NCBI RefSeq assembly: GCF_964194155.1
Contig: NC_135901.1
Coordinates: 11,966,001-12,030,000, forward strand
Direction of reading: 5' to 3'
Origin: Cetorhinus maximus
Lineage: Eukaryota
Length of the DNA stretch: 64,000 bases
Shown in pieces: positions 7,621-64,000 of the stretch (position 1 is the stretch's first letter; each line of letters begins with the position of its first letter). Position numbers and translations under genes: made by a program. The notes beneath the pieces were generated by a model, which saw nothing but the letters and a program-made list of their open reading frames with translations, did no database searches and was not told where the DNA came from.

Positions 7621-8156
7621 ATAGGGAACCGTCTCGCTCCGCTCCTCATCGTAATGTCACTTCTCATTAAGTATTTCCTTCCCAGTAAAAAAAAAATCCC
7701 CTAATTAATGTCACACATATTATTGTTGGTACAATAACGGTGATGGTTTTGATTCCGATTATATTGATCAATATGAGGCTGACCCTGATTTTTGTTCATG
7801 CTATTGTTTTATATTAGAATGGAGCCACCAAGACACAATGGAACTGTTGCTGAAATAACGGTTGAAGGGGAAAGTAAGGCCACATTAGCCTGCACCTTGA
7901 AAACAAGCGATTCTATCCCTTATGTGTTGTGGTACAGTCAGAACCCCGGGCAGCCTCCACAGTACATGCTTCGTGTCCTGGGATGGAAACTATGCAGACA
8001 CACCGACATCACTAATCGCTTTTCAGCAACGTTCAATAAAACTGCCAAAATTGCAGAGCTAATGATCAGCAACACTTTAATCTCTGACAGTGCGATATAT
8101 TTCTGTGCCATGCAGCCCACACTGCAGCAGAGATATCGCGGATCCCGTAGAAACCC
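7621..8156 (+). pseudogene. TCR V pseudogene/ORF, family B (leader remnant 7621-7666, V exon 7818-8117, RSS 8118-8156)
   Basis: V domain ATLACTLK..VLWYSQNPGQPPQY..RFSATF..SDSAIYFCAMQ is open. Start codon is ATA, the canonical donor is mutated (TTAAGT), and FR1 has a 4-nt deletion relative to the paralog at 42.5 kb. RSS is CACACTG + 22/23 bp + degenerate nonamer. Confidence 0.82.
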
Positions 8157-11719: not shown

Positions 11720-11758
11720 CACAGTGATGGAAAGCAGCCTCACGCCTGTACAAAAACT
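11720..11758 (+). other. 23-RSS
   Basis: CACAGTG + 23 bp + ACAAAAACT. Confidence 0.93.
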
Positions 11759-34091: not shown

Positions 34092-34440
34092 GGTTTTTGG
34101 ACAGCTCTCTCCGTGCTCTGTATCACTGTGTGTCTGTAATCCCACCATGTTCAGGTTTTTGTACAGCTCTCTCCGTGCTCTGTATCACTGTGTGTCTGTA
34201 ATCCCACCATGTGCAGGTTTTTGCACAGCTCTCCCCGTGCTCTGTATCACTGTGTGTCTGTAATCCCACCATGTTCAGGTTTTTGTACAGCTCTCTCCGT
34301 GCTCTGTATCACTGTGTGTCTGTAATCCCACCATGTGCAGGTTTTTGTACAGCTCTCCCCGTGCTCTGTATCACTGTGTGTCTGTAATCCCACCATGTTC
34401 AGGTTTTTGTACGGCTCTCTGCGTGTTCTGTATCACTGTG
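34092..34440 (-). repeat. Tandem array of six 23-RSSs (62-bp unit) downstream of the supporting V-delta
   Basis: Heptamers (CACAGTG on minus) at 34124, 34186, 34248, 34310, 34372 and 34434. Each has a 23-bp spacer and a nonamer: ACAAAAACC in four units, GCAAAAACC and CCAAAAACC in one each. 23-bp linker TGAACATGGTGGGATTACAGACA. Confidence 0.95.
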
Positions 34441-34746
34441 CTGTGCGCCGACTCAGGTCACAGTAATACACAGCGGAGTCGCTCAGTTGTAGTTTGGAGA
34501 TATTTAACCAGCCGATTTTCTTGGCAGAATCGACAGAAGCAGAAATTCTCCCCCCAGCAACGTTTTCTTTATTCTCCTCTCCTGAAGTGTGTCTCTGAAG
34601 CAGATATTCCGGAGCCTGTCCTGGGGACTGACGGTACCAGTGTACTGTGTACTGACAGAACCCTGAATATTCACATCTTAAAGTAACGGTGTCACCGGCA
34701 GGAGAGGTGTGTAGAGGCGGATTCCGGGAAATTATGGAACTGGAAT
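34441..34746 (-). CDS. NAR-TCR supporting V-delta exon (leaderless, extra CDR1 Cys), intact
   Basis: Polypyrimidine + CAG acceptor at 34747-34748. Open frame (D)SSSIISRNPPLHTSPAGDTVTLRCEYSGFCQYTVHWYRQSPGQAPEYLLQRHTSGEENKENVAGGRISASVDSAKKIGWLNISKLQLSDSAVYYCDLSRRT. Phase matches the J donor at 37653-37658. Absent from the ORF track because it has no start codon. Confidence 0.9.
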
Positions 34747-37658
34747 CTGGAGGACAAAAAAAATGAACATTTTATTTTTGTTTAACCTCTGTTTGTCCAG
34801 GTAAATATGTCATCCACGTGAATAGCTCTGCTTTTTGAAGTAATTTTATTTGCTGGAAGCCTGTTTGAACCATGTTCACTCTTATGAAAATATGATCAAG
34901 TGGGGAATGAGGTGATATTTTAGTTTACATGGCGAACTCTTCCGATTAGGACTGCACTGTCTGAATCGGTGTTGGGAACAGATTCCATTGTAACTTTCAA
35001 ACGGGTAATGGATCTGTGCTGGAAATGTAAATACAAATATAGAACGTTGGAGAAAATTCATGGGCAGTGGGAAAAATTGGATTGCACTTTTAAAGGGTCA
35101 GCACCTACACGAGGGGCCGAATGTCATCATTCCGTGCTGGATAATTCTATGAATTATATTACATTCCCGTTTCTATTTTCCTTGGTGAGACACAAACCCG
35201 AGGGAGCATTTTATGTTCAGCGAGGCAACCAGTTTCCAAAAAAAAAAACATGTTTGTTGGAGAGAAACACAGCTGTGTGGCATCACTGCGCACAGCAAAA
35301 TCCAACACAAACTGATGGGAATCATCAGCACCGATTGGGCAAAACAGAGAGTGAGAACCAGTGGTCAAAGGTCAATCATTTACTGCGGTTTAAAACTACT
35401 CGGGAAATTCTCTCTGCCTTTTGCTGTATTTCTCCATGTTCTATCAATAGTGTCCTATTTTCTCCAGTTCAGCTTAATTTCAAATATGTACAATTAATTT
35501 CATCTTATTTCTCTAATTTCACGTTCCCTTTATTTCACATTTTCTTTGTGTTGTTTGTGCTTTCTGCAATCGTGGGAACTTGCCCCAAAGTCTCTCAGTT
35601 GTCGGTTGGGTTCAGTCTGTTCAATTTCCGCAGTGGTTTTACTGTTACTCACTGGGAACTGCCTCTTCTGGCTCTCTGACAATTTCAATTCTTTCCGCAC
35701 GTTAACTGATTCTATCCCGGGTTCACTGGGTGGAGTTTTCTCTTAATTTTACATTATAGAGGAAGAAGAATACAGAAGAGGAATGCGCCAGTCAGCCTGT
35801 GTATATCATCAATTCCAGCCGCACCCCACCAGAAATCTGATTGACCATTTACATCCAGCTCCCTGTGTTGGTCTGTTCCGTTCTCCCTCCTGTGTTTTCA
35901 AGTGTTTCAATAAATATATCAATGCCAACTCCAACCTCTCCCTGTGGCAGCAAGTTCCACATTCTGACCTGCCTTTGTTTAAATTCATTTGCCTTAAATG
36001 TTTTATTTGTTCTGTTAATGACTGTCATATGTTGACGGCTATTGCTTTGGACTCAGCCACAAATGAACAATTTATCCACATTAAAACCGTTCATTATTGT
36101 AAAACATTCTATGGATTCTCCTTGTGGTTCTTTTTTCCGGAAAAAAGAGACCCAGCCTGTTCAATCTTCCCAAGAGATGTGGATTGTTGCTGATTTCTTG
36201 TTTCATCAAAGTAGAGAATCGAATCAACAGAAGCAGGAGCCCCGATATCACCATTTAAACCCGTTCAGCCATTCAGTAATATCCTGGCTGATTTACAACT
36301 TCAACAACACATTCCCGCATTCTCCCCATATCCCCTGTTCCGTTTAGTGTCCGAAAACCTATCGAATATTGTCTTGAATGGACATAGATTATGAACATCC
36401 ACCGCTCTCTGAGTTACAGAATGCCACAGATTAACAACAATGGTTCTACAGAAGATATTTTTTCCTTCTCAGTTCTAATGGATGAAACTTTATTCTGAAG
36501 CTGTGACGCCGAGTTCTATACTCCTCAGTCTGGGGAAACTCCGAGCCAGAATCTGCCCTGTCAAAGCCCTTCAGAATATTATATGTTTTCATGAGTTCAC
36601 CTCTCATTCTTCTAAACTCGAGGAACTATAGACCGAGACGACTAAATCTCTTCCCATTGGACAATCACTCCATCTCAGGAATCAGTCTGATAAACCTTTG
36701 CTGCACTCCTTCCAATGCAGATTGATCTCTCTTCAGTAAGTAGGCCAAAACTTTACACAGAATTCCAGACTGGAGTCCATTTCAGTCTTTCACTCATAAA
36801 CCTCACGCATCCTGGGGTCAGAAATCATCCAATCCTTCTCTCCCTTTCGATTTTTTTTTTCTTGCTGGTTCTAAATGAGCATTCTCCTAGTTTATAATTG
36901 TTTCCTTATGTTTCTGTTCTCCTTCATAAGATTAATGCATCATCCTCACTCTCTCACTGCACTGTATTGCTTATTCCACAGTAATCAGGGATGCAGATAA
37001 ATTACAGCCATCCCATCTCTCAAACATGTACAGTCAATATGGAGAAGTGTCTGCAGTTCCAAACTTTCACATCTCGGTCTGAGGGCGGGAAAGGAGGAAA
37101 GTGACTGGTTGAAGACAATTGAAAGAAATGGGGAGGGGGGCAATGTCACTAATTTCAGTCACCGATTGTCCAATAATAAAATTCCATCTGGACCCACATC
37201 AGGATCTCTTATATCTGAAGTCCCTTGTGTCACTCGCCCGTTTCTCTCCCGGGTCAGGTATTGAACGAGCCGCTGCAGGTATCCGAACTGGCCGCAGTTG
37301 TGTTGAGTTTATTCACTCGGTTTCTGATTCACATAGCGCGGCTCGGACTGCAATCTGCTGCCCAGGAGAGAGCTCTGTGACCCCGCTCCCGGGCTCCAAG
37401 GGACAGACAGAGCTCCCTCGGTCACAGTTAACACCGGGAGTGGAGTCCGGATTGCCGACCATCTCCGCTCATTAAAAGCGATTCAGAGTGTGAGAGTCCG
37501 TGATGTTGAGGTTGTCTCCGATGTACCCGTTAAACCAATAATGGTCCAGATTCCGTCAACTCCCACAACCCACCCAAACTCCACTGATATCAATAATAAA
37601 CTGACGATGAACATTACCCGAGACAGTCTGTAACCCGGCGGGGTTTGGAGCTACTTAC

Positions 37659-37750
37659 CGGCTGTGACAGTCACCACCGTCCCGGACCCATCCGCATAAT
37701 CAGTGTACCACCACAGTGACTCCGCTCTGAGTCTCTCCGGCACAACAACC
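37659..37750 (-). CDS. NAR-TCR J segment (37659-37711) with 5' 23-RSS (37712-37750)
   Basis: Encodes WYTDYADGSGTVVTVTA followed by G|GTAAGT. RSS on the + strand: CACAGTG-23-ACAACAACC. Confidence 0.9.
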
Positions 37751-38065: not shown

Positions 38066-38136
38066 AGTATTTGCTCGGGTCTCTCCCACTGTGACTGTCC
38101 CAAAATAACACAGTGTTACAAGTCAGTATAAGATCC
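38066..38136 (-). CDS. NAR-TCR D segment (38094-38108, TTATTTTGGGACAGT) flanked by two 12-RSSs
   Basis: 3' RSS CACAGTG-12-GCAAATACT; 5' RSS CACAGTG-12-ATAAGATCC. D is open in all three frames (LFWDS/YFGT/ILGQ). Confidence 0.88.
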
Positions 38137-38461: not shown

Positions 38462-38976
38462 AGTTTTTGTATCGCGAGAAGCCGAGGCCCATCACTGTGT
38501 GTTTTGTACTTGTACTGAGCTTTACAGTAATAGGTGGCCGTGTCTTCAACTCTCACATCCCGAATTTCCAGCGAAAATGTCTTTTCTGCTTTATTCACCG
38601 ACACAACAAATCTCCCCCCACTGGAGATCTGCTCCCGCTCTGTCCCGGTCTGGGTTTGTCTGAAGAAATCCCCGCCCGTCAAAGGACGAGCGAAAAAACC
38701 ACCATAGAAAACACAGTTGATGGTGAGAGACTGACACTCCTTCCTGGTCACCGCTGCCGGGGTCTGCACCACTGACTGACTGAAAGAGCCTGGAAATTAA
38801 ACAGAGAGAGTTTAATGGACTATCAGAGCCGAACCACAGAACGGGGTTAAAACTCCAGTTTCTGTAATTGGGATGGACTCGGGCAGCTTTATATTAAATC
38901 CACACAATGTCGGTTTGTTTGACGGGTACTCACAGGGTAAACAGACACACAGGGTGAAAACAAGGAGGATTCCCAT
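38462..38976 (-). CDS. NAR-TCR V (IgNAR-like V): leader 38934-38976, V exon 38500-38789, 22-bp-spacer RSS 38462-38499
   Basis: Leader MGILLVFTLCVCLP. Exon QSVVQTPAAVTRKECQSLTINCVF..FFRQTQTGTEREQISSGGRFVVSVNKAEKTFSLEIRDVRVEDTATYYCKAQYKYKT shows VNAR hallmarks (SLTINC, short CDR2 region, ISSGGR, YYCKA). RSS is CACAGTG-22-ACAAAAACT. Confidence 0.92.
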
Positions 38977-49699: not shown

Positions 49700-51400
49700 G
49701 AAACAAGCACTGTCTCAATCATTTCTGCACTGAACCCTTTCCAAGTTCATATTAAACTTGACCTTTGACTATATATATTACATTCAGTGACGTCTCTGAT
49801 CATATTACAACAGGTTGTGTCTCAGTTGTTTCTATAATAGGTCAATCTCAGTCAATATACAGGACAAAGACCATGTTACACTATACATTCTCTCAGTTAT
49901 CACTGCACTAAACCATGTCTTGGCTAATATGACAATAGTCCATGTCTCAGTTGTTACTGCACTGGTACTTGTCTCTACTTATACGAAACCAGAACATGTT
50001 CCTGTTTACATGACAGGAGGCTCTGTCTCAGTTATTGCACTACTGGACTCTGCCATATTTATACTAAACTAAGGGTTGTGTTGGCGAACGCTGCACCAGT
50101 CTATGTTTCTGTTTATATCACACGATGCCATGTCACTGTTATTATTGTATAATACCGTGCCTCTCTCTTATTGCTGCACTTGCCCACATCTCTGTTTATA
50201 TTAATCCAGGTCCTGTGTTGGTAGTTATTGCACTAGGCTCTGTCTCAGTTTATATTCGACAAGGTCCTATATCAGCTGAAACTGCAGCAGACCCCGTGTC
50301 AGTTTCCTTTCACTAGATCCTGCCTCAGTTATTACTGAACTAGACCATGTCGGTGTTCATATTACACAAGACACTGTCTCAATTATTACTGCACTCGGCA
50401 CAGCCTCACTGTTTACTCCACTACATCATGCCTCTGTTTATATTACCCTAGATCACCTTTTTGCTTATATTCTGTTAGATCCTATCTCAGTTTACATAAC
50501 ACTCGACCTGTCTCAGTTTATATTACATTAGACTCCGTCTCAGATAATATTACACTGGAGCCCGTCTCGGTTTATATTACACTAGAGCACGTCTGTGTTT
50601 ACATTACAATAGACCCTGTCTCAGTTTATATTACACTAGACCCTGTCTCAGTTTATATTACACTAGATCCTGTCTCAGTTTATATTACACTAGACCCTGT
50701 CTCAGTTTATATTACACTAGGCATTGCCTCTGTTTATATTAAAATAGGTCCTGTCATTGTTATTTCTGTGTAGGCCATGTCTCTATTTATACTACACAAG
50801 GCCAAGTCTGCTATTACTGCACTAAATCCTGGCTCAATAATTGCTGATACTAGGCCCAGCCTTCGTTTGTATTACTGTGTATGCTGTATCAATAATTGGT
50901 GCACTCGGCCCTGCCTCAGCATTACTGCACCAGACCCTGACTTTGTTTCTACTGAAATAGATTATGTCTATGATAATATTACACCAGTTCCTGCCTCAGT
51001 TATTTCAGTGCTCGGCCTCGCCTCAGCTGCTCCTGAATTCGGCCGTGGCTTTGTTTGTATTACATGCGGTAAGTCTCAGTTATTACTGCTCTGGGCCCAG
51101 CGCCTGTATATACAACGCTAAACCCTGTCTTAGTTGCTGCTGCACTAATCCAGACATCTCCTTTTATTACACTCGCCCTGTCCCTGTTTTTATTCCACTA
51201 GATCATGTTTTTGTTTATCTTACACTTTAGGCAATCTGAGATATTATTGCACAAGACCCTTTCTACGGCGTTATTAATCCATGTGCCGAATCAATCATTA
51301 TTGTTCGAGCCCCGAGAGAGGATTAATATCAATTGACCCAATACTTAGTGCGCTAACCCTGCCTAGTTATTTCTACGCTGGGCCATGTCTCTGTGATTAC
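49700..51400. repeat. 27-bp minisatellite (TAGACCCTGTCTCAGTTTATATTACAC) with degenerate flanking copies
   Basis: Near-perfect tandem copies at ~50560-50720. Degenerate tracts at ~28350-29260, 39900-40320, 52570-52900, 61600-62030 and 63300-64000. Confidence 0.8.
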
Positions 51401-54400
51401 TGCAACTGTGAGTTGGAGAGATAATATTATACACAAAGATGTTGAGGTGGGATTTGTTCCCTGGCGTTGCCCTAAAACGGGCGGTATTGGAGGACCCGTT
51501 CTTTGAAGCACCTGATAGTTATTTTCATTTAGTTTTAGTCAAAGAAGTTATAGATCAGATCTGGTCAGTTATGTGTGCCGTATAGAAAAAAAAAACATGC
51601 TTCTTGCTTATACCGCCGTTTCTCAAAGATAAATGATGATCTTTACCTGAGCGTTTCAATATTTAATTTTCTTTTACTCAAACTGTCACTGCGGATTATT
51701 TAGTGCTGTAAACATTTATTGATAGCATGTTTCGTTGTGTACTTTTGCTTAGAAAGTGATGTCATACTGACACTTCCGTCACTAAGACCAGCATGTTTAT
51801 CACCAAACTCATTGAATGTCCCTTCTTTCTCTATCTGAGGCAGCGTCTTACTCACTGAACCTCTTCTCTCTCTCTCTCTCAATCTTTCTTTCTCTCTCTC
51901 TCACGCTCTCTCTCCACCCACCATCTAACTCCCGCCCCCACACCCCCGCTCTCTCTCTCTCTCTGAGACAGTCCCTTATTCATTTTGAATCTCTTGTTGT
52001 CTAATAACACTCTTTGGAGATTTTTTTCCGCAAGTTCTCTTCATTCCTCCCAGTGACAACTTTCAGTCCATTCCAGCCTTCAGTGATTGTGTTCAAATCC
52101 AAAACTATGCATTTATTTAAATTGTAGATTGTTTAATACTGTAAGTATTTATTGATAACCAGTCTGTTGTGAGCATTTGTTTATAAAGTGATGTCAGACT
52201 GACGATTTCGTTTCTAAGGTGCTTTATCTGTCTCCGGTGATCAGTTGGAAAGCGGAGTAAATCACATCCAGAATAACCTGCAGTTTATTAACAAATGATC
52301 ACCTCAATATCTCACAGAAGCTCCTGATAATCTCGAATGTGTGATGATTTGTGCAAGTGATGGCAAATATCAAACTTTTTCTACACCTGACATGAGACTA
52401 ATACACCTGTAATTCTCCGATTTATTATTCCTGTTGATGGGAAGGATTGAAACTCCTGCTGCTCTCCAGAGACTTTCACTATTTCTATTTCCACTTTTTT
52501 AACTGTTATCTTCACAAATTCCACCACAACCGCTCGAATCATGTTTGGAGGGATTGGTGTAACTGCAGGTTGTATATTCAATGTAATCTTAACGAAAATA
52601 AACTAGGGCCTAGTCGAGTATAAACGGAGACCGAACTTGGTGTAACATAAGCAGAGATATGGGTTACTGCATTAATAACAGAGACAGTATCTGGTTTAAT
52701 ATAAAAGGAGATATCAGCTAATGAAGTAATAACAGAGACAAGGCCTGGTGTTATATAACCAGGGATATGGGCCCGTGCAGTAATATCAGAGACAGGACTT
52801 GGTGTAATATAAACATATGTATCGGCTAGTGCAAGTAATAACAGGCACAATACCTAGTGTAGTACAGACAGAGGCATGTGCTAGTGCGGTGATAACACAA
52901 ATTGGCCCAAGGAGTCAAATAAACAGAGAAATTGGCGAGTTCAGGAATAAGAGAGAGGGAGGACTTGGTATAACATTGAATGAACCGATATTTGTATGAT
53001 CATAATAACAAAAACACTTTGTATAAAATAACAACTGAAAGAGGTCATGGCGAAACACTAGAAGAAACAGGGTCAACGTTAACAATATCAGAATCAGGTT
53101 ACTATTGAAAACTGATCGGCACAAGGTTTTCAGAAATAAAGAGAGAGGTTTGCATTAGAATTTGAATGATATGTAGGCTCTTCGTGCAACCATTACAGAG
53201 ACAGCGTTTTTTACAATGAGATTGAATATAGGGAACAGATTAAAAACGGTAAAGCTCTGTGTAATTAGTGCAATGTTTGATGATCACAGAGGATAGCAGG
53301 TTGCAGTGCATCACTGAATACATCACTGGGTCCAATGTGATAACGACACGGTCAGCACCTGATCCACCCAAATCGAAGTTGGGTCTGATATAATAGTGTG
53401 TGTGAGGCAGCGCCAATTGATACAGTAGCAAGTCTTTTGCATAATGCCCAATAACAGAGTCAAGCACCACTGAAATATATGAATGGGATGGAGTTGGTGC
53501 AATAACAATGACACAGTCTAGTGTAATGGCTAATAAAACATAACATTCTGGAATGACTCTGCAGGTCAGGCAGAATCTGTGGCGATAAACAGAGTGAACG
53601 TTTCATGGTGATGACCCTTCAGCAGAACCGGGGTAATCGATTAGAAACTTTAACTCTGCTTCTCTCCACAGCCACTGCACTCCCGAGTGGTACAGTTGGT
53701 GGTCCTCCTGCTTTTGAGCTGTAAGATCCGTGTTCAAATTCCTCTCCCGGCTCCGTTCACCACGGGAAGAGTGTTCGTATGACAGAACGCCGGTTTTTAA
53801 TTAGCCTCCAAAATCCTCCCGCCTCTCCACACTTTCCCCAAGGCTGCAAAAAATATGACGATCCGGAAAACATAAAGGCTCGACACCTGCTGTCTGACCT
53901 GTTGAGGATTTCCAGCACATTCGGTATTTATTTCAGATTTCTAGCATCTGTCATATGTTGCCGTTGTACTAATGCAATGGGAACTGGGGATACATCATGT
54001 CAGCATTGACGAATTAGCGTCACTTTTACCCCTGGGTCAAACGGTTGTGGGTTGAAGCCTCAATCCAGAGAGTTGACCATTTAATAACGCCCAGTGCTCA
54101 CGGTGAGAGTTTATATGTCAGCCTTTCTGTTCTCTTATCCATTATTTTCTTACACTCAGGAGGAGGAATTAAAGACAGAGAAACTCTGGACAGTTTCTCC
54201 ATCCAGCAAAGGACGTGTTCCTGGGACATTGTTGCTGCTTTCACCTTCCCGCCCTCTCCAAAAATACAAACAACATCTCCCTCCTTGGATTTGCAAAGGG
54301 AATTCTGACTGCCGGGCCCGGGCCAGACTGGGGCCTGGTCCAATAATATTCACAGAGGCCGGCTCCGGTGTGTCAATAACAGAGGCTGCTGGTAATCTTA

Positions 54401-55469: not shown

Positions 55470-55720
55470 CTGTATCACTGTGTATCTGGTATCCCCACTT
55501 TGTTCAGGTTTTTGTACAGCTCTCTCCGCGCTCTGTATCACTATGTGTCTGTAATCCCTCCATGTTCAGGTTTTTGTACAGCTCTCTCCGCGCTCTGTAC
55601 CACTATGTGTCTGTAATCCCACCATGTTCAGTTTTTTGTACAGCTCTCTCCGCGCTCTGTATCACTGTGTGTCTGTAATCCCACCATGTTCAAGTTTCTG
55701 TACAGCTCTCTCCGTGATCT
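55470..55720 (-). repeat. Second tandem 23-RSS array (same 62-bp unit), at least 4-5 units, abutting an N gap
   Basis: Plus-strand heptamers at 55476 (CACTGTG), 55539 and 55601 (CACTATG) and 55663 (CACTGTG). Nonamers at 55507, 55569, 55631 and 55693. Confidence 0.9.
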
Positions 55721-55808
55721 AACCCTGAACATTCACAGCTTCAAGTAGTGGTGTCACCGACAGCAGAGGTGTGTAGAGGTGGGCACCAAGACACCAGGGA
55801 ACTGGAAT
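55721..55808 (-). pseudogene. Truncated supporting V-delta of second NAR-TCR cassette
   Basis: (D)SSSLVSWCPPLHTSAVGDTTT*SCECSG is homologous to ~34660-34746. The rest of the V and the proximal heptamer are deleted. Confidence 0.85.
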
Positions 55809-57229
55809 CTGGAGAATAGAAAAATGAACATTATTTGTTTGCTTAGCCATTGTTTACCTGGGAGAATTTGTCAATGACATGAAAAGTTCGTTTTTCTTAA
55901 CTTGAAGCCTGTTACAACCGTATTCACAGTCATTCAAATGTGATTAAGTGCAGAGATGATAATTTTCTTTTGAATCGAGAATTTTTCCAATCTGCACTGC
56001 ACAATCAAAATGGTTGGTGCGAACAGACTCAGTGGGAACTTTCAAACGGATGATGTATCTCTACTGCAACAGGAAAAATGTACAGCCTCATGAGGAAATA
56101 CATGCGTTTTGGTAAAAATTCGATTGCGCTTTGAAAGGGATAGCACCTCTACGATGGGCCGAATATCATCCTACTTCTCGGCATGGTTCTATGATGTATG
56201 TTACATTTGTGCTTCTATTTTCCTTGGTGAGCGACACCCCGAGTGAACATTTATTTTCAGTGAGGTAATCAGTTTCCAAAATTGACTGTCCGGGACAATA
56301 AGTATCAGCATCACTGCGCCCAGCATGATCGAAATGAAAGCGATTGTGATTAATCAGCATTGACTGAAACTTCTCTCTTCACAGTTCTAATGGCCGACCC
56401 CTTATGTTGAAACTGTGGCTCCCAGTTATAGACTTTCCAACCTGAGGAAGCTCCCACCTAGAATCTTCCCTCTCAAGCCCCTTAAGGATATCATGAGATC
56501 GCCCCTCATTCCTGTAAACTCCAGGGAACACAGGCCCAGCCTACTCAATCCCTTCTCATAAGGCAATCCCTTTACCTCAGGAATCAGCCTGATGAACATT
56601 TGTTGCAAAGCATGTCGAACCTTCCCTAAGTAAGAGGCCAGACTTTACACAGCATTCCAAACTGGAGTCCTTCTCTCCATAAACACCACCCACCACCCTG
56701 GGCTCGGATTGTACTTTGAACGGCCCAGAGATAATCCAATCGTTCTTTCCCATTCGATGAATTATTTCTTGCTGGTTCTAAATGAACATTCTCTCAGTTT
56801 AGAATTGTTTCCTTATGTCCCTGTTCTCTTTTATAAGATTAATGCATCATCCTCACTCTCTCACTGCACTTTGAGTTTTTAATTCACAGTAATCAGAGAT
56901 ACAGATAAATTACAGCAATCCCATCTCTCAAACATCGACATTCAATGTAGAGAAGTGTCTGCAGATCCAAACTTTCACATTTCGATCTGAGGATGGAGAA
57001 GGAGGAAAGTGATTGGGTATATGAAGACAATTGAAGCAAATGGCGGGTAAAATGACCCGACTGTCGAATAATTTCCTGTTCCCAAATCGAAGCCTGCAAA
57101 GGAAAAGATCCCTTAAAAATCGTTTTTTTTTAGCTTCGATGTGATTGACACGATGTTGATCACAATAATAATCTGACGGTGAACATTATCTGGCACAGTC
57201 TGCAACACGCGGGCTTTAGAGTCACTTTC

Positions 57230-59429: not shown

Positions 59430-62400
59430 TATCATTGTCCCAGCACCTTTCCTGTATCTACCTCTGTCCCTCATCGAGCCCAAATAAAATGCAATAATTA
59501 CACAGCTTTCGCCTTCTGCTAATCCTGTCTTTTGACAGCGCTTGAGTGTGTGTGTGTCGATAATTGCCAGGAATCATTCGGAAGTTCACTACTGTTTACA
59601 AACCACTACGTTGAACAAAATAATAACACTGAATAGAGCTCGTTTAGTAGAAAGCACGATTATCTTTAACATTTTCGGCTCTGATTTTTCCTCTGGTGAG
59701 GTTTTGGTGTTCAATCCTTTCAGTCATCATGTGCCTCAAGCTGAAGATTTAAACATTGGTTTCGACAAGCTGCCGGGTCCGGCCCTTGCGTGTCTGTGTA
59801 AATGGAGAACTGTCGGTAAGAATGAGAGGGAGCAGATTATTTTCTGTTCCTCTGACAGATGCAGCATTGACCCTGCAGATATCAGAAATCTCTGGAGTCC
59901 GCCATGATTGTCCTCCCCTTGGGTATAACAGCTCTCAGTCAGGCGGAGTCAGTCACACGGGCCTCTGTCATGATGTTTCCGCTCCGTTTTTACCACACAA
60001 ATCCCTGGGTCACTCAGCATAACACAGAAGCCTGCGCTAAGGCCCTAAACATCATTGCTTCCTCACACTTTCACACCCTATAACAGTCAGATGTTTATTA
60101 GAACCCCTGCCTCTCTTTATGTAAGATTACCAGCAGCCTCTGTTATTGATACACTGCAGCCGGCCTCTGTGGTTATTATTGGACCAGGCCCCAGTCTGGC
60201 CCGGGCCCGGCAGTCAGAACTCCCTTTGCAAATCCAAGGAGGGAGATGTTGTTTGTATTTTTGGTGAGGGCGAGAAGGTCAAAGCAGCAACAATGTCCCA
60301 GGAACCTGTCCTTTGCTGGATGGAGAAACTGTCCAGAGTTACTCTGTCTTTAATTCCTCCTCCTGAGTGTAAGAAAATAATGGATAAAAGAACAGAAAGG
60401 CTAACATATAAACTATCACCGTGAGCACTGGCCGTTAATAAATGGTCAACTCTCTGGATTGAGGCTTCAATCCACAACCGTTTGACCCAGGGGTAAGAGT
60501 GACGCTAATTCGTCAATGCTGACATGATGTATCCCCAGTTCCCATTGCATTAGTACAACGGCAACATATGACAGATGCTAGAAATCTAAAACAAAATCCG
60601 AATGTGCTGGAAATCCTCAACAGGTCAGACAGCAGGTGTCGAGTCTGTTTGTTTTCCGGATCGTCATATTCTTTGCAGCCTTGGGGAAAGTGTGGAGAGG
60701 CGGGAGGATTTTGGAGGCTAATTAAAAACCGGCGTTCTGTCACACGAACACTCTTCCCGTGGTCAACGGAGCCGGGGGTGGAACCTGAACACAGATCTTA
60801 CAGCTCAAAAGCAGGAGGACCACCAACTGTACCACTCGGGAGTGCAGTGGCTGTGGAAAGAAGCAGAGTTAAAGTTTCCAATCGATGAATCCGGTTCTGC
60901 TGAAGGGTCATCGCCATGAAACGTTCACTCTGTTTATCACCACAGATTCTGCCTGACCTGCAGAGTCATTCCAGAATGTTATGTTTTATTTGCTATTACA
61001 CTAGACTGTGTCAGTGTTATTACACCACTCCATGCCATTCATATTGCAGTAGTGCTTGACTCTGTTATTGAGCATTAGGCAAAAGATTTGCTACTGTATC
61101 AATTAGCGCTGCCTCACACACACTATTATATCAGACCCAACTTCGATTTGGGTGGATCAGGTGCTGACTGTGTCGTTATCACACTGGATCCAGTGAGTAT
61201 TCATTGACGCAGTGCAACCTGCCATCCCCTGTTATCATCAAACATTGCATTTGTTACACACAACTTCCCTGTTTTTAATCTGTTCCCTGTGTCCAATCTC
61301 ATTGTATAAAACGCTGTCTCTGTAATGGCTGCACTAAGAACCGACCTGCTATTGAAATTCACATGCAAACCTCACTCTTTATTTCTCAAAACCTTGTGCC
61401 TATCACTTTTCAATAGGAACCTGTTTCTGATATTGTTAACGTTGACCCTGCTTCTGTTAGTGATCCACGATGACCTCTTTCATTTGTTGTTTAATGCAAA
61501 GCATTTTTGCAATTATGCTTACATAAAAACCTGTTTACTCGAATGTTATACCAGGTCCTCTCTCTCTCTTATTCCTGAACTAGCCCATTTCTCTGTTTAT
61601 GTTACTCCCAGGGAAAGTTCGTGTTATCACTGTACTAGCACATGTCTCTGTCTGTATTAGACCAGATATTGTACCTGTTATTACTGCACCAGCCGATTTC
61701 TCTGATAATATTTGACCAGGCCCTGTCTCTCCAAATTACTAAACTACTCCATATCTCTGTTTCTATTACACCAGGTCCTGTTACCGTTATTACTGCACCA
61801 GCCTATAATTCCATTTATATTACACCAAGCCTGTCTCGATTATTACTGCACTAGCCCATATAATTGGTTACATTACATCAGGCCCTGTCTCTGTCATTAC
61901 CTCATTAGCCAATATCTCTTTTTATATTGCACGAGCTCTCATCTTTGTTATTCTGCACTGGTCCATATCTTTGCCTATATTACACCAGGTCCGCTCTCTG
62001 CTTATGCTACACTTGATCCTGGTTTATTTTGGTTAAGATCACATTGAATATATAACACACAGACAGACCAATCAGGCAAAAATGATTCGAGTGGTTGCGG
62101 AGGAATTTGTGAAGATAACGATAAAAACAGTGGAAGCAGAAATATTGGAATTTCTCTGGAGAGCAGCAGGAGTTCCAATTCTTCTCATCAGCAGGAATAA
62201 TAAGCCGGAGAATTACAGGTGTATTTATCTCATGTCAGGTATAGATAATGTTTTATTTTTGCCAACATTTGAAGAAACAACCTCACATTCGATATATATC
62301 AGGAAATTCTGTGAGATGCTGAGTGGTCATGTGTTCATAAGCTGCTCGTTATTCTCGATGTGATTTAATTCACTTTCCAACTGACCATCGGAGACAGATA

Positions 62401-64000
62401 AACCTACCTCAGAAACTAAATAGTCAGTCTGACATCATTTTATCAACAAATGCACACAACAGAATACTTATCAATAAATTGTTACATCGTTAAACAATCT
62501 GCAACTTAAATAAATGCGTAGTTTTGCATTTGAACACAATCACTGAAGGCGGGAATGGACTGAAGGTTGTCACTGAGAGAAATGAAGGGAAATTACTGAA
62601 AAAAATGGATTTTCTCCTCAGAGTGTTATTAGATAACAGCAGATTCGAAATGAGTAAGAGACTGTCTCAGAGAGAGAGAGAGATAGAGGGACAGAGGGAG
62701 AGAGAGGGAGAGAGAGAGAGAGACAGAGAGAGAGCGGGGGAGAGAGACAGAGAGAGAGAGAGGGGCGGGGGCGGGGGGTGGGTGGAGAGAGACAGAGACA
62801 GAGAGAGAGAGAAGAGGTTCAGTGAGTTAGACGCTGCCTCAGACAGAGAGAGAAGAGACCTTCAGTGAGTTTGATGATGGACGTGATCGTCTTAGTAACG
62901 ACACAGTCAGTATGACATCACTTCCTAAACAAAAGTGCACAATGAAACATGTTATCAATAAACATTTACAGTACTAAATCATCCGTAGTTATATTTTGAG
63001 TGAAAGAAAATTAAATATTGAAACATTCTGGTGAAGATCATCGTTAATCTTTGAGAAACGACGGTATAAGCAAGAGGCATGTTTTTTTTTGCATACAACA
63101 CACATAACAGGCGACACCTGACATACAATTTCGCTGACTGAAACTAAATGAAAATAACTGTCAAGTGCTGCAAAGAATGGGCCATCAAATACCGCCCGTT
63201 TTAGGCCAACTCCGGAGAAAAATTCCCACGTCAACATCTTTGTTTGTAATATTACCCCTCCAACTCACAGAGACATAGAGAACTGCAGTAATAACAGAGA
63301 CATGGTCTAGTGTAGAAATAACTGAGGCAGGGTTAGCGCAGAAATTACTGAATAAGTACCTGGCTTAATATCAATTGATATTAATCTACTCTCGGGGCTA
63401 GGACAGTAATTATTGATCCGGCGCATAGATTAATAAACTCCTAGAGAGGACCTGGTGCAGTAATAACTGAGATTGCCTCTCGTGTAAGATAAATAAAAAC
63501 ATGATCTATTGGAATAAAAACAGAGACAGGGTGTGTGTAATATAACATGTATGAACTCGTGCAGCAACAACTAAGACAGGCTTGACTGTTGTATATACAA
63601 ACACTAGGTCCAGAGACTTTGCCGCAGGTAATGCAACCAGAGACACGGCCGAAATCGGAAGAGCTGAGACGAGGCCGAGCACTGAAATAACTGCGGCAGG
63701 AACTGGTGTAATATTATCATAGACATAATCCATTTCAATATAAACAAAGTCAGGGTCTGGTGCAGTAATACTGAGACAGGGCTGATTGCTCCAATTATTG
63801 ATACAGCACCGACAGCAATATAAACCGAGACTGGGTCTTGTCTCAGAGATTGCTGAGCCAGGATTTAGTGCATTAACAACAGACTTGGCCTTGTGTAATA
63901 TAAACAGGGACATGGTCTGCACAGCAATAACAAAGACAGGATCTATTCTAATAGAAACTGAGACAATGTCTAGTGTAATATAAACTGAGGCAGGGTCTAG
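59430..64000 (-). repeat. Right arm of large inverted duplication (runs off window end)
   Basis: Begins near TCATTGTCCCAGCACCTTTCC, the reverse complement of ~55070-55090, and stays collinear to the window end. Confidence 0.9.

Follow-up and report, generated by a model that had tools for sequence, protein, structure and literature searches.

The window, a stretch of 64,000 nucleotides of Cetorhinus maximus, contains on its minus strand a NAR-TCR cassette whose intact, leaderless supporting V-delta is followed by six head-to-tail 23-RSSs (recombination signal sequences with a 23-bp spacer) in units of 62 bp, at positions 34092-34440. The ladder consists of tandem copies of this V segment's own 23-RSS, and such arrays stand behind nearly every NAR-TCR cassette examined. 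The features concerned are as follows (window coordinates).

34441-34746, minus strand: supporting TCR-delta V exon, leaderless, open frame, CDR1 cysteine; splice acceptor at 34747-34748
34402-34440, minus strand: RSS1, V-proximal 23-RSS with perfect heptamer and nonamer; the heptamer supplies an in-frame TGA
34379-34401, minus strand: 23-bp linker, repeated at 34317-34339, 34255-34277, 34193-34215 and 34131-34153
34340-34378, minus strand: RSS2, perfect 23-RSS
34278-34316, minus strand: RSS3, perfect 23-RSS
34216-34254, minus strand: RSS4, 23-RSS with nonamer position 1 A>G
34154-34192, minus strand: RSS5, perfect 23-RSS
34092-34130, minus strand: RSS6, terminal 23-RSS with nonamer position 1 A>C; the repeat stops 12 bp into the next linker
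37657-37750, minus strand: NAR-TCR J (37711-37659) with GT donor and its own 23-RSS (37712-37750)
38066-38136, minus strand: NAR-TCR D (38108-38094) between two 12-RSSs
38462-38789, minus strand: NAR-TCR V exon (38789-38500) with a-b loop cysteine, without the canonical Trp; single RSS with 22-bp spacer
38934-38976, minus strand: NAR-TCR leader exon
55470-55815, minus strand: end of a second cassette, which is dead; what is left of the 5' part of a supporting V is fused within a ladder unit, and 3.9 copies of the 62-bp unit follow

The heptamers of the ladder read CACAGTG on the minus strand and start at 34440, 34378, 34316, 34254, 34192 and 34130. All six spacers are 23 bp long; four of the six nonamers are perfect (ACAAAAACC), and the other two deviate by one mismatch at position 1. 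The unit is composed of heptamer, spacer, nonamer and linker (7+23+9+23 = 62 bp), and TRF describes the ladder as 5.8 copies of a 62-bp unit with 95% matches and no indels. Each of the five distal units thus has a CAC heptamer, a 23-bp spacer and a consensus or near-consensus nonamer, and the first-pass annotation, which had claimed six tandem 23-RSSs of exactly this make-up, is borne out on these points. The RSS scan of the window yields just 11 other RSS-like matches, none of them tandem, and the exact 30-mer of linker and heptamer has 70 matches in the genome (all in C24 0-24 Mb or on small contigs) versus 0 for the reversed control; the ladder is therefore far beyond chance. A looser nonamer-gap-heptamer pattern gives 515 matches genome-wide versus 172 in the control, and none of the first 100 listed lies in the locus. 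No match to an E-box, RUNX, AP-1, Ikaros, GATA or CTCF core motif occurs in the ladder unit.

The cassette begins with an intact NAR leader, which together with the NAR V (22-RSS), the D between 12-RSSs and the J with 23-RSS lies 3.2-4.5 kb upstream of the ladder; the ATG is 4,536 bp upstream of RSS1. The supporting V carries the CDR1 cysteine (...CEYSGFCQYTVHW...) and ends in ...RRTAQ*, with the stop falling inside heptamer 1. These features fit the definition of a NAR-TCR supporting V-delta by its CDR1 cysteine, as given in the available part of PMC1845163, and both the identity assigned to the gene at first pass and the in-frame stop ascribed to the first heptamer hold. In the parts of PMC1845163 and PMC12227049 at hand, NAR-TCR cassettes of cartilaginous fishes likewise combine a leader, a NAR V with the a-b cysteine and without the canonical Trp, a D, a J and a leaderless delta V with CDR1 cysteine. 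The nearest named proteins are those of lamniform sharks (85-92% and 78-86%). Among NAR-TCR proteins sought as cDNA-derived sequences for a comparison of CDR3s, all 76 matches are models predicted from genomes. A contig end of run X4, from another organism, contains a spliced boundary of NAR J and supporting V that matches the acceptor at 34747-34748; the ladder contig of the same run may derive from a germline transcript, its RNA label being a guess. Contigs of runs X1 and X3 (other organisms) have junction-like loose ends at the end of the supporting V, the only ones of this kind among the listed ends; none of the runs listed for this part of the window is an RNA run. The 5' nonamer of the window's NAR D (38128-38136) has one mismatch more than in most paralogues.

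Other TCR V segments of the window are situated at 228, 3799 and 30877 on the minus strand and at 11720 and about 8109 on the plus strand. Four of these five possess a single 23-RSS, three of them with a CACACTG heptamer; for the V near 8109 the scan, within its limits, gives no RSS. The dead cassette end possesses a TRF array at 55470-55714, with a CAT heptamer in two of its three full RSS units. It belongs to a subfamily (L090, L094, L096, L098-L100) in which a deletion has joined the supporting V, cut back to its first ~100 bp, to the interior of a ladder spacer, with the loss of heptamer 1; in the six paralogues obtained, two of the four subsequent heptamers have lost CAC.

A search with V and ladder gave 40 scored places out of 114 candidates. 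Searches with the V only, with the protein of a diverged paralogue and with a short pattern, made to avoid a bias towards ladders, added 60 stretches, six of which have lost the V 3' end and were excluded; the 54 kept bring the number of parsed cassettes that possess the 3' end of a supporting V to 94. This number is a lower bound for the family, and some of the small contigs may be second haplotypes. The 94 cassettes fall into 36 subfamilies at 98% identity, and a NAR V lies within 6 kb of the supporting V in 91 of them. Two to twelve RSS-like units are present in 93 of the 94 cassettes, distributed as follows.

RSS-like units and number of cassettes: 1 unit, 1; 2 units, 11; 3 units, 19; 4 units, 16; 5 units, 11; 6 units, 12; 7 units, 9; 8 units, 2; 9 units, 1; 10 units, 10; 11 units, 1; 12 units, 1

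At least one near-consensus distal RSS is kept in 87/94 cassettes. The second unit is a near-consensus RSS in 77/93 cassettes and possesses CAC in 91/93, the third is near-consensus in 33/82. Near-identical paralogues of the window's cassette (V identity 99.4-99.7%) have 4, 5 and 6 units, and six is no special number. Same-kind stacking is found in 0 of the 223 other RSSs of the retrieved DNA, a set that includes the NAR V, D and J signals of these very cassettes; the 11 close RSS pairs among the 223 consist of a J 23-RSS beside a D 12-RSS in one deleted subfamily. The first heptamer supplies an in-frame stop in 92/94 cassettes. The two exceptions, L093 and L097, have an RSS1 heptamer CACAGCG and have lost the stop. 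The first-pass annotation had seen the ladder at this V; it had overlooked its family-wide, and probably elasmobranch-wide, occurrence.

NAR V-D-J are joined in the germline in 26 of the 94 cassettes (L035, L036, L038, L041-L052, L057-L062, L064, L067, L068, L078 and L083, on C24 and small contigs), and 25 of these 26 still possess 2-10 units. The idea raised at first pass that the ladder concentrates RAG at a V needing two VDJ events is weakened by this. Six further cassettes (L022, L023, L025, L032, L039, L085) have joined V-D only. Germline joining is known for shark immunoglobulins. Some of the joins may predate these species, since the Carcharodon model P0009 has a nearly identical joined CDR3. 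The largest subfamily (12 near-identical copies, L009-L021) has a frameshift in its NAR V and a defective splice donor at its J, yet its supporting V is open, it carries 7-10 units, and it is still being amplified. Cassettes of the pseudogene class possess a mean of 5.3 units versus 4.7 in intact ones, the classes being crude regex assignments in which some germline-joined cassettes are possibly misfiled.

A single constant gene of the C-delta type is located at C24:14.233 Mb and is called delta because D segments precede it. Upstream of it there are two D segments of the 12-D-23 type and 11 J 12-RSSs. The D-J-delta region is duplicated (L109-L115, C24:14.243-14.292 Mb), with D-J-J, V segments with single 23-RSSs, a second D, nine Js and C-delta. 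The NAR-TCR cassettes, at least 94, and other V segments extend over about 24 Mb (C24:0.04-24 Mb) on both sides of C-delta and in both orientations, which makes this either a giant bidirectional locus or a scaffolding error. The window's cassette, as assembled, is located on the 3' side of C-delta and shares its strand, so that its coding joint would go to the excised circle. Among the 72 placed cassettes, 23, including that of the window, are of this coding-joint-excised type, 41 are inversional and 8 deletional; unit numbers differ little among the three classes. Either the scaffold is misoriented in a repetitive region, or many cassettes are unable to give stable chains.

Evidence from other species consists of the tails of read-through predicted proteins and the contigs of sequencing runs. 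The first-pass annotation had proposed to look for tandem RSSs behind the supporting V-deltas of other sharks and rays, and a second unit is seen in protein tails of carpet sharks, a sawshark and a sawfish and in the contigs of other runs. It follows after 55-63 nt in the tails of Hemiscyllium (4 tails), Rhincodon (2), Stegostoma, Pristiophorus and Pristis; this evidence is indirect, as compatibility at the codon level is easily achieved and a few of the single second units score no better than the best shuffle. Contigs span V-RSS1-linker-RSS2 in organism A (X15, X17) and organism C (X3), and RSS1-linker-RSS2 in organism D (X4); organisms B and F yielded pieces of a ladder, E the V only. In the distant relative P0048 there are five units of 61 bp, each of them compatible with a perfect heptamer, a 23-bp spacer and a nonamer with at most one mismatch. 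The second heptamer cannot be CAC in 6/7 orectolobiform (carpet-shark) tails, i.e. in 5/6 besides P0049, plus Stegostoma, and some carpet-shark supporting Vs read through without a stop. In the single model of the chimaera Callorhinchus (P0002), possibly spliced and thus uninformative, no second unit is detectable behind the supporting V. Sharks and rays separated more than 250 million years ago. The tails and the shared period point to an origin of the ladder before this split, and the ladder is probably an elasmobranch-wide trait.

Substitutions were counted along a spanning tree over unique complete units, with 16 signal and 21 spacer sites in the comparison by rank. RSS1 is strongly constrained (1 signal versus 41 neutral changes, p=4e-5; ratio 0.35 in the comparison by rank). 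The pooled distal units, with 63 signal versus 214 neutral changes, have no significant conservation of the signal (p=0.08), and the ratio is 0.98 in intact cassettes alone. Split by rank, changes that occur in the second unit alone number 6 at the 16 signal sites versus 24 at the 21 spacer sites (ratio 0.33, p=0.007; post hoc, substitutions only), those in the third and later units 54 versus 65 (ratio 1.09), and the two groups differ with p=0.012 (Fisher's test on a post hoc split, gaps ignored). Free mutation of heptamer and nonamer relative to the spacer, named at first pass as the mark of a neutral minisatellite, is hence found from the third unit onwards and not, on this post hoc split, in RSS2. 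The pattern of RSS2 could also be inherited from RSS1 via duplication or conversion. Counted by subfamily (n=36), perfect heptamers occur in 32/36 RSS1, 32/35 RSS2 and 62/99 later units. Where RSS2 is old and distinct (28 cassettes), its heptamer is held in 27, and its nonamer is off consensus before the last base in 12. Spacers of RSS-like internal units contain no indels (one dead terminal unit with spacer insertions is left out by the filter), whereas in the linker, which is of the same length, at least 12 different indel patterns are counted once terminal and duplicate ones among the 21 listed are dropped. A Markov model of copy number fitted to the cassette tree puts the rate of collapse to a single unit at 0.13 times neutral (LRT 6.6, p=0.01); the scarcity of single-RSS cassettes may reflect only that stretches of 62 bp recombine poorly or that gene conversion refills the array. 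The net result lends weak support to a selected floor of two signals with neutral drift above it.

The interpretation that we favour, tentatively and at somewhat below even chances, is that of a capture amplifier, in which any signal of the ladder makes the long-range join, RSS1 finishes on the next 12-RSS, and length above two drifts. It is drawn from the survival of RSS1 and of the 12-RSSs in a distal join, together with the known retargeting of rearrangement and the known use of alternative RSSs in the mouse. Under the 12/23 rule, any intact 23-RSS of the ladder is a potential partner for a D-delta or J-delta 12-RSS, even at a distance of megabases. Joining at RSS1 could give a productive gene immediately, whereas a join at a distal RSS would retain the heptamer-1 stop, which is seen in the sequence, and give no chain. 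If distal signals are cleaved, such a join would bring the cassette next to the D-J-C recombination centre and leave RSS1 uncut. RSS1 could then recombine over a short distance with the following D or J 12-RSS, which would remove the used-up segment and complete the gene. The outcome would be a larger share of delta rearrangements for a leaderless V whose RSS is 4.5 kb from the start codon, a distance that may explain why this class of V gains from a ladder.

Several observations are consistent with a capture amplifier: at least two units in all cassettes but one, 54 of the 94 having been found by ladder-independent or short-pattern searches; the lack of stacking in other RSSs; the low modelled rate of collapse to one unit; the post hoc substitution pattern of RSS2; the constant spacer length; the five consensus-compatible signals of P0048; and the D and J 12-RSSs before one C-delta as downstream partners. 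Against it stand the pooled distal test, the off-consensus nonamers among old RSS2 units, the mostly dead second heptamers of carpet sharks, and the ladders kept by pseudogene and germline-joined cassettes. Distal coding or signal joints, or loose ends at the border of linker and heptamer, are absent among the listed ends of eight runs, which is no counter-evidence, as these are contigs from which rare variants are dropped. Serial re-rearrangement, suggested at first pass, is allowed by the structure, with two D-delta 5' and 11 J 12-RSSs available, and finds no distal joint in these contigs. On the favoured interpretation it is likely that the second signal is kept by selection and that the extra length drifts.

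A neutral, long-lived minisatellite comes close behind the capture amplifier and likewise stands somewhat below even odds. Slippage would early have duplicated RSS1 and its flank, unequal exchange and conversion between the dozens of cassettes would regenerate the array from the selected first unit, and distal joins would be tolerated noise. This agrees with the neutral mutation of units 3 and higher (ratio 0.88-1.09), with the fast change in copy number (4-6 units among Vs with more than 99% identity, 3-12 within one clade), with the variable distance from RSS1 to RSS2 (62, 50, 60, 63 bp), with terminal units decayed as array edges predict, and also with the dead carpet-shark second signals seen in protein tails and the long ladders of pseudogene-class cassettes. 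It accounts less well for a single RSS in just one of 94 cassettes (tree model p=0.01), the conservation pattern of RSS2, the lack of spacer indels despite a GA run in the spacer, the unexpanded state of other RSS classes in the same duplicated cassettes, and P0048, whose linker ends have diverged although its five signals remain compatible with the consensus. The fixed spacer, present in all RSS-like units and even in those without CAC, would also suit a RAG loading pad without cleavage, whose extra signals bind RAG or stall a scanning recombination centre and pass it to RSS1, distal cutting being rare. As a change at heptamer position 3 stops cutting and not the formation of the paired complex, according to the portion of PMC7337519 at hand, units that appear dead could still bind; yet the nonamers, the binding element in that same portion, are not spared in units 3 and higher (35 changes at 9 sites versus 85 at 21), and the CAC that RSS2 retains in nearly all cassettes is consistent with cutting. 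We regard such a pad as improbable.

Decoys that throttle NAR-TCR usage, another first-pass idea, are very improbable. Distal joins would here be dead ends that limit the output of a hugely amplified family, and the frequent heptamer-1 stop, the size of the family and the long ladders of its largest subfamily speak for this. However, a distal join leaves RSS1 intact and adjoining the J cluster, where many J 12-RSSs survive, and the process would end there only if the second step were blocked; the largest subfamily has a broken NAR V anyway, and unit number above two looks neutral. An assembly artefact, i.e. a collapsed or duplicated single RSS, is finally the least probable of all, with next to no chance. 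The region is highly duplicated and the orientation of 23 of the 72 placed cassettes suggests scaffolding errors, but ladder units are distinguished by diagnostic bases, contigs of other runs span V-RSS1-linker-RSS2 (X17, X15, X3) or RSS1-linker-RSS2 (X4), and the protein tails of other species share the period. An artefact is thus largely refuted, while the exact count of six at the window's locus rests on the assembly.

Each unit of the ladder resembles the canonical V 23-RSS under the 12/23 rule, as far as the accessible part of PMC7337519 describes it, in its consensus heptamer, 23-bp spacer and nonamer; it differs in that a V normally possesses one such signal, whereas the ladder strings several head to tail, and coding DNA adjoins the first unit alone. 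Alternative or cryptic RSSs of mouse TRBJ genes (PMC6857471, available part) include a usable second RSS 39-47 bp from the end of the gene, which leaves the normal RSS in the joint, as in the proposed distal join. Such nearby signals are used in vivo at a low rate and leave germline DNA in coding joints; according to the same part of PMC6857471 they are single, dissimilar, rarely used and due to chance, whereas the ladder consists of near-perfect copies across a whole class of V and several orders. In the mouse Tcra-Tcrd locus, according to the available text of PMC8679779, the initial rearrangement redirects subsequent ones towards the closest segments still present. The successive V-alpha/J-alpha rearrangements primed by a Tcrd join are, in that text, alike in relocating the recombination centre and then using the nearest signals, but each round uses a new V, whereas the spare signals of the ladder belong to one V, so that this V itself would outlast the first round. 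VH replacement through a cryptic heptamer is comparable in that an extra signal allows a second round on the same allele; there the signal lies inside the V, which is replaced, while the ladder lies outside the V, which would be preserved. All extra signals sit downstream of the first RSS and none inside the coding 3' end of the V, and a cryptic RSS of the VH-replacement type is ruled out.

Repeated RSSs are not mentioned in those parts of PMC12227049 or PMC1845163 that were available, in contrast to the supporting Vs with 2-12 signals in 93/94 cassettes here. The literature searched contains no description of RSSs stacked behind a class of V, a passing mention in the main NAR-TCR papers or their supplements being possible, and the first-pass view that the arrangement had no prior description stands within that literature. 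Judged from sequence, ordinary RSSs and a known cassette are combined in an apparently undescribed and old arrangement. One RSS per V end is a near-rule of antigen-receptor loci, from which stacked consensus signals in a whole class of V depart. Kept across shark orders, the ladder offers a natural experiment on RAG choice among adjacent signals and on RSS number versus gene usage, and it bears on the competition of the doubly rearranging NAR-TCR with ordinary V-deltas. It is conceivable, albeit rather unlikely, that sharks and rays possess a "two-step capture" device more than 250 My old, in which sacrificial spare RSSs dock the cassette through a join that is long-range and non-productive by design, the proximal RSS completes the same V, and copy number tunes V usage. 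If so, a share of the repertoire would be set by RSS copy number, which is not known to be described for any antigen-receptor locus. If the ladder is neutral, it is a very old minisatellite made from a recombination signal, awaiting annotation pipelines in every elasmobranch TCR-alpha/delta locus.

The ladder shares with minisatellites (VNTRs) its unit of 60-62 bp, the rapid change in copy number and the decayed terminal units; it differs in a unit that is a recombination signal anchored to a selected first copy, and in an apparent floor of two. The window also contains a degenerate minisatellite family with 27/54-bp period, located by TRF at 50226-50755, 52623-52844, 61765-61891 and 63285-64000. 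A role of the ladder in lengthening CDR3 is rejected in this genome, where the first heptamer brings the stop in 92/94 cassettes, and is possible in carpet sharks whose supporting Vs read through.
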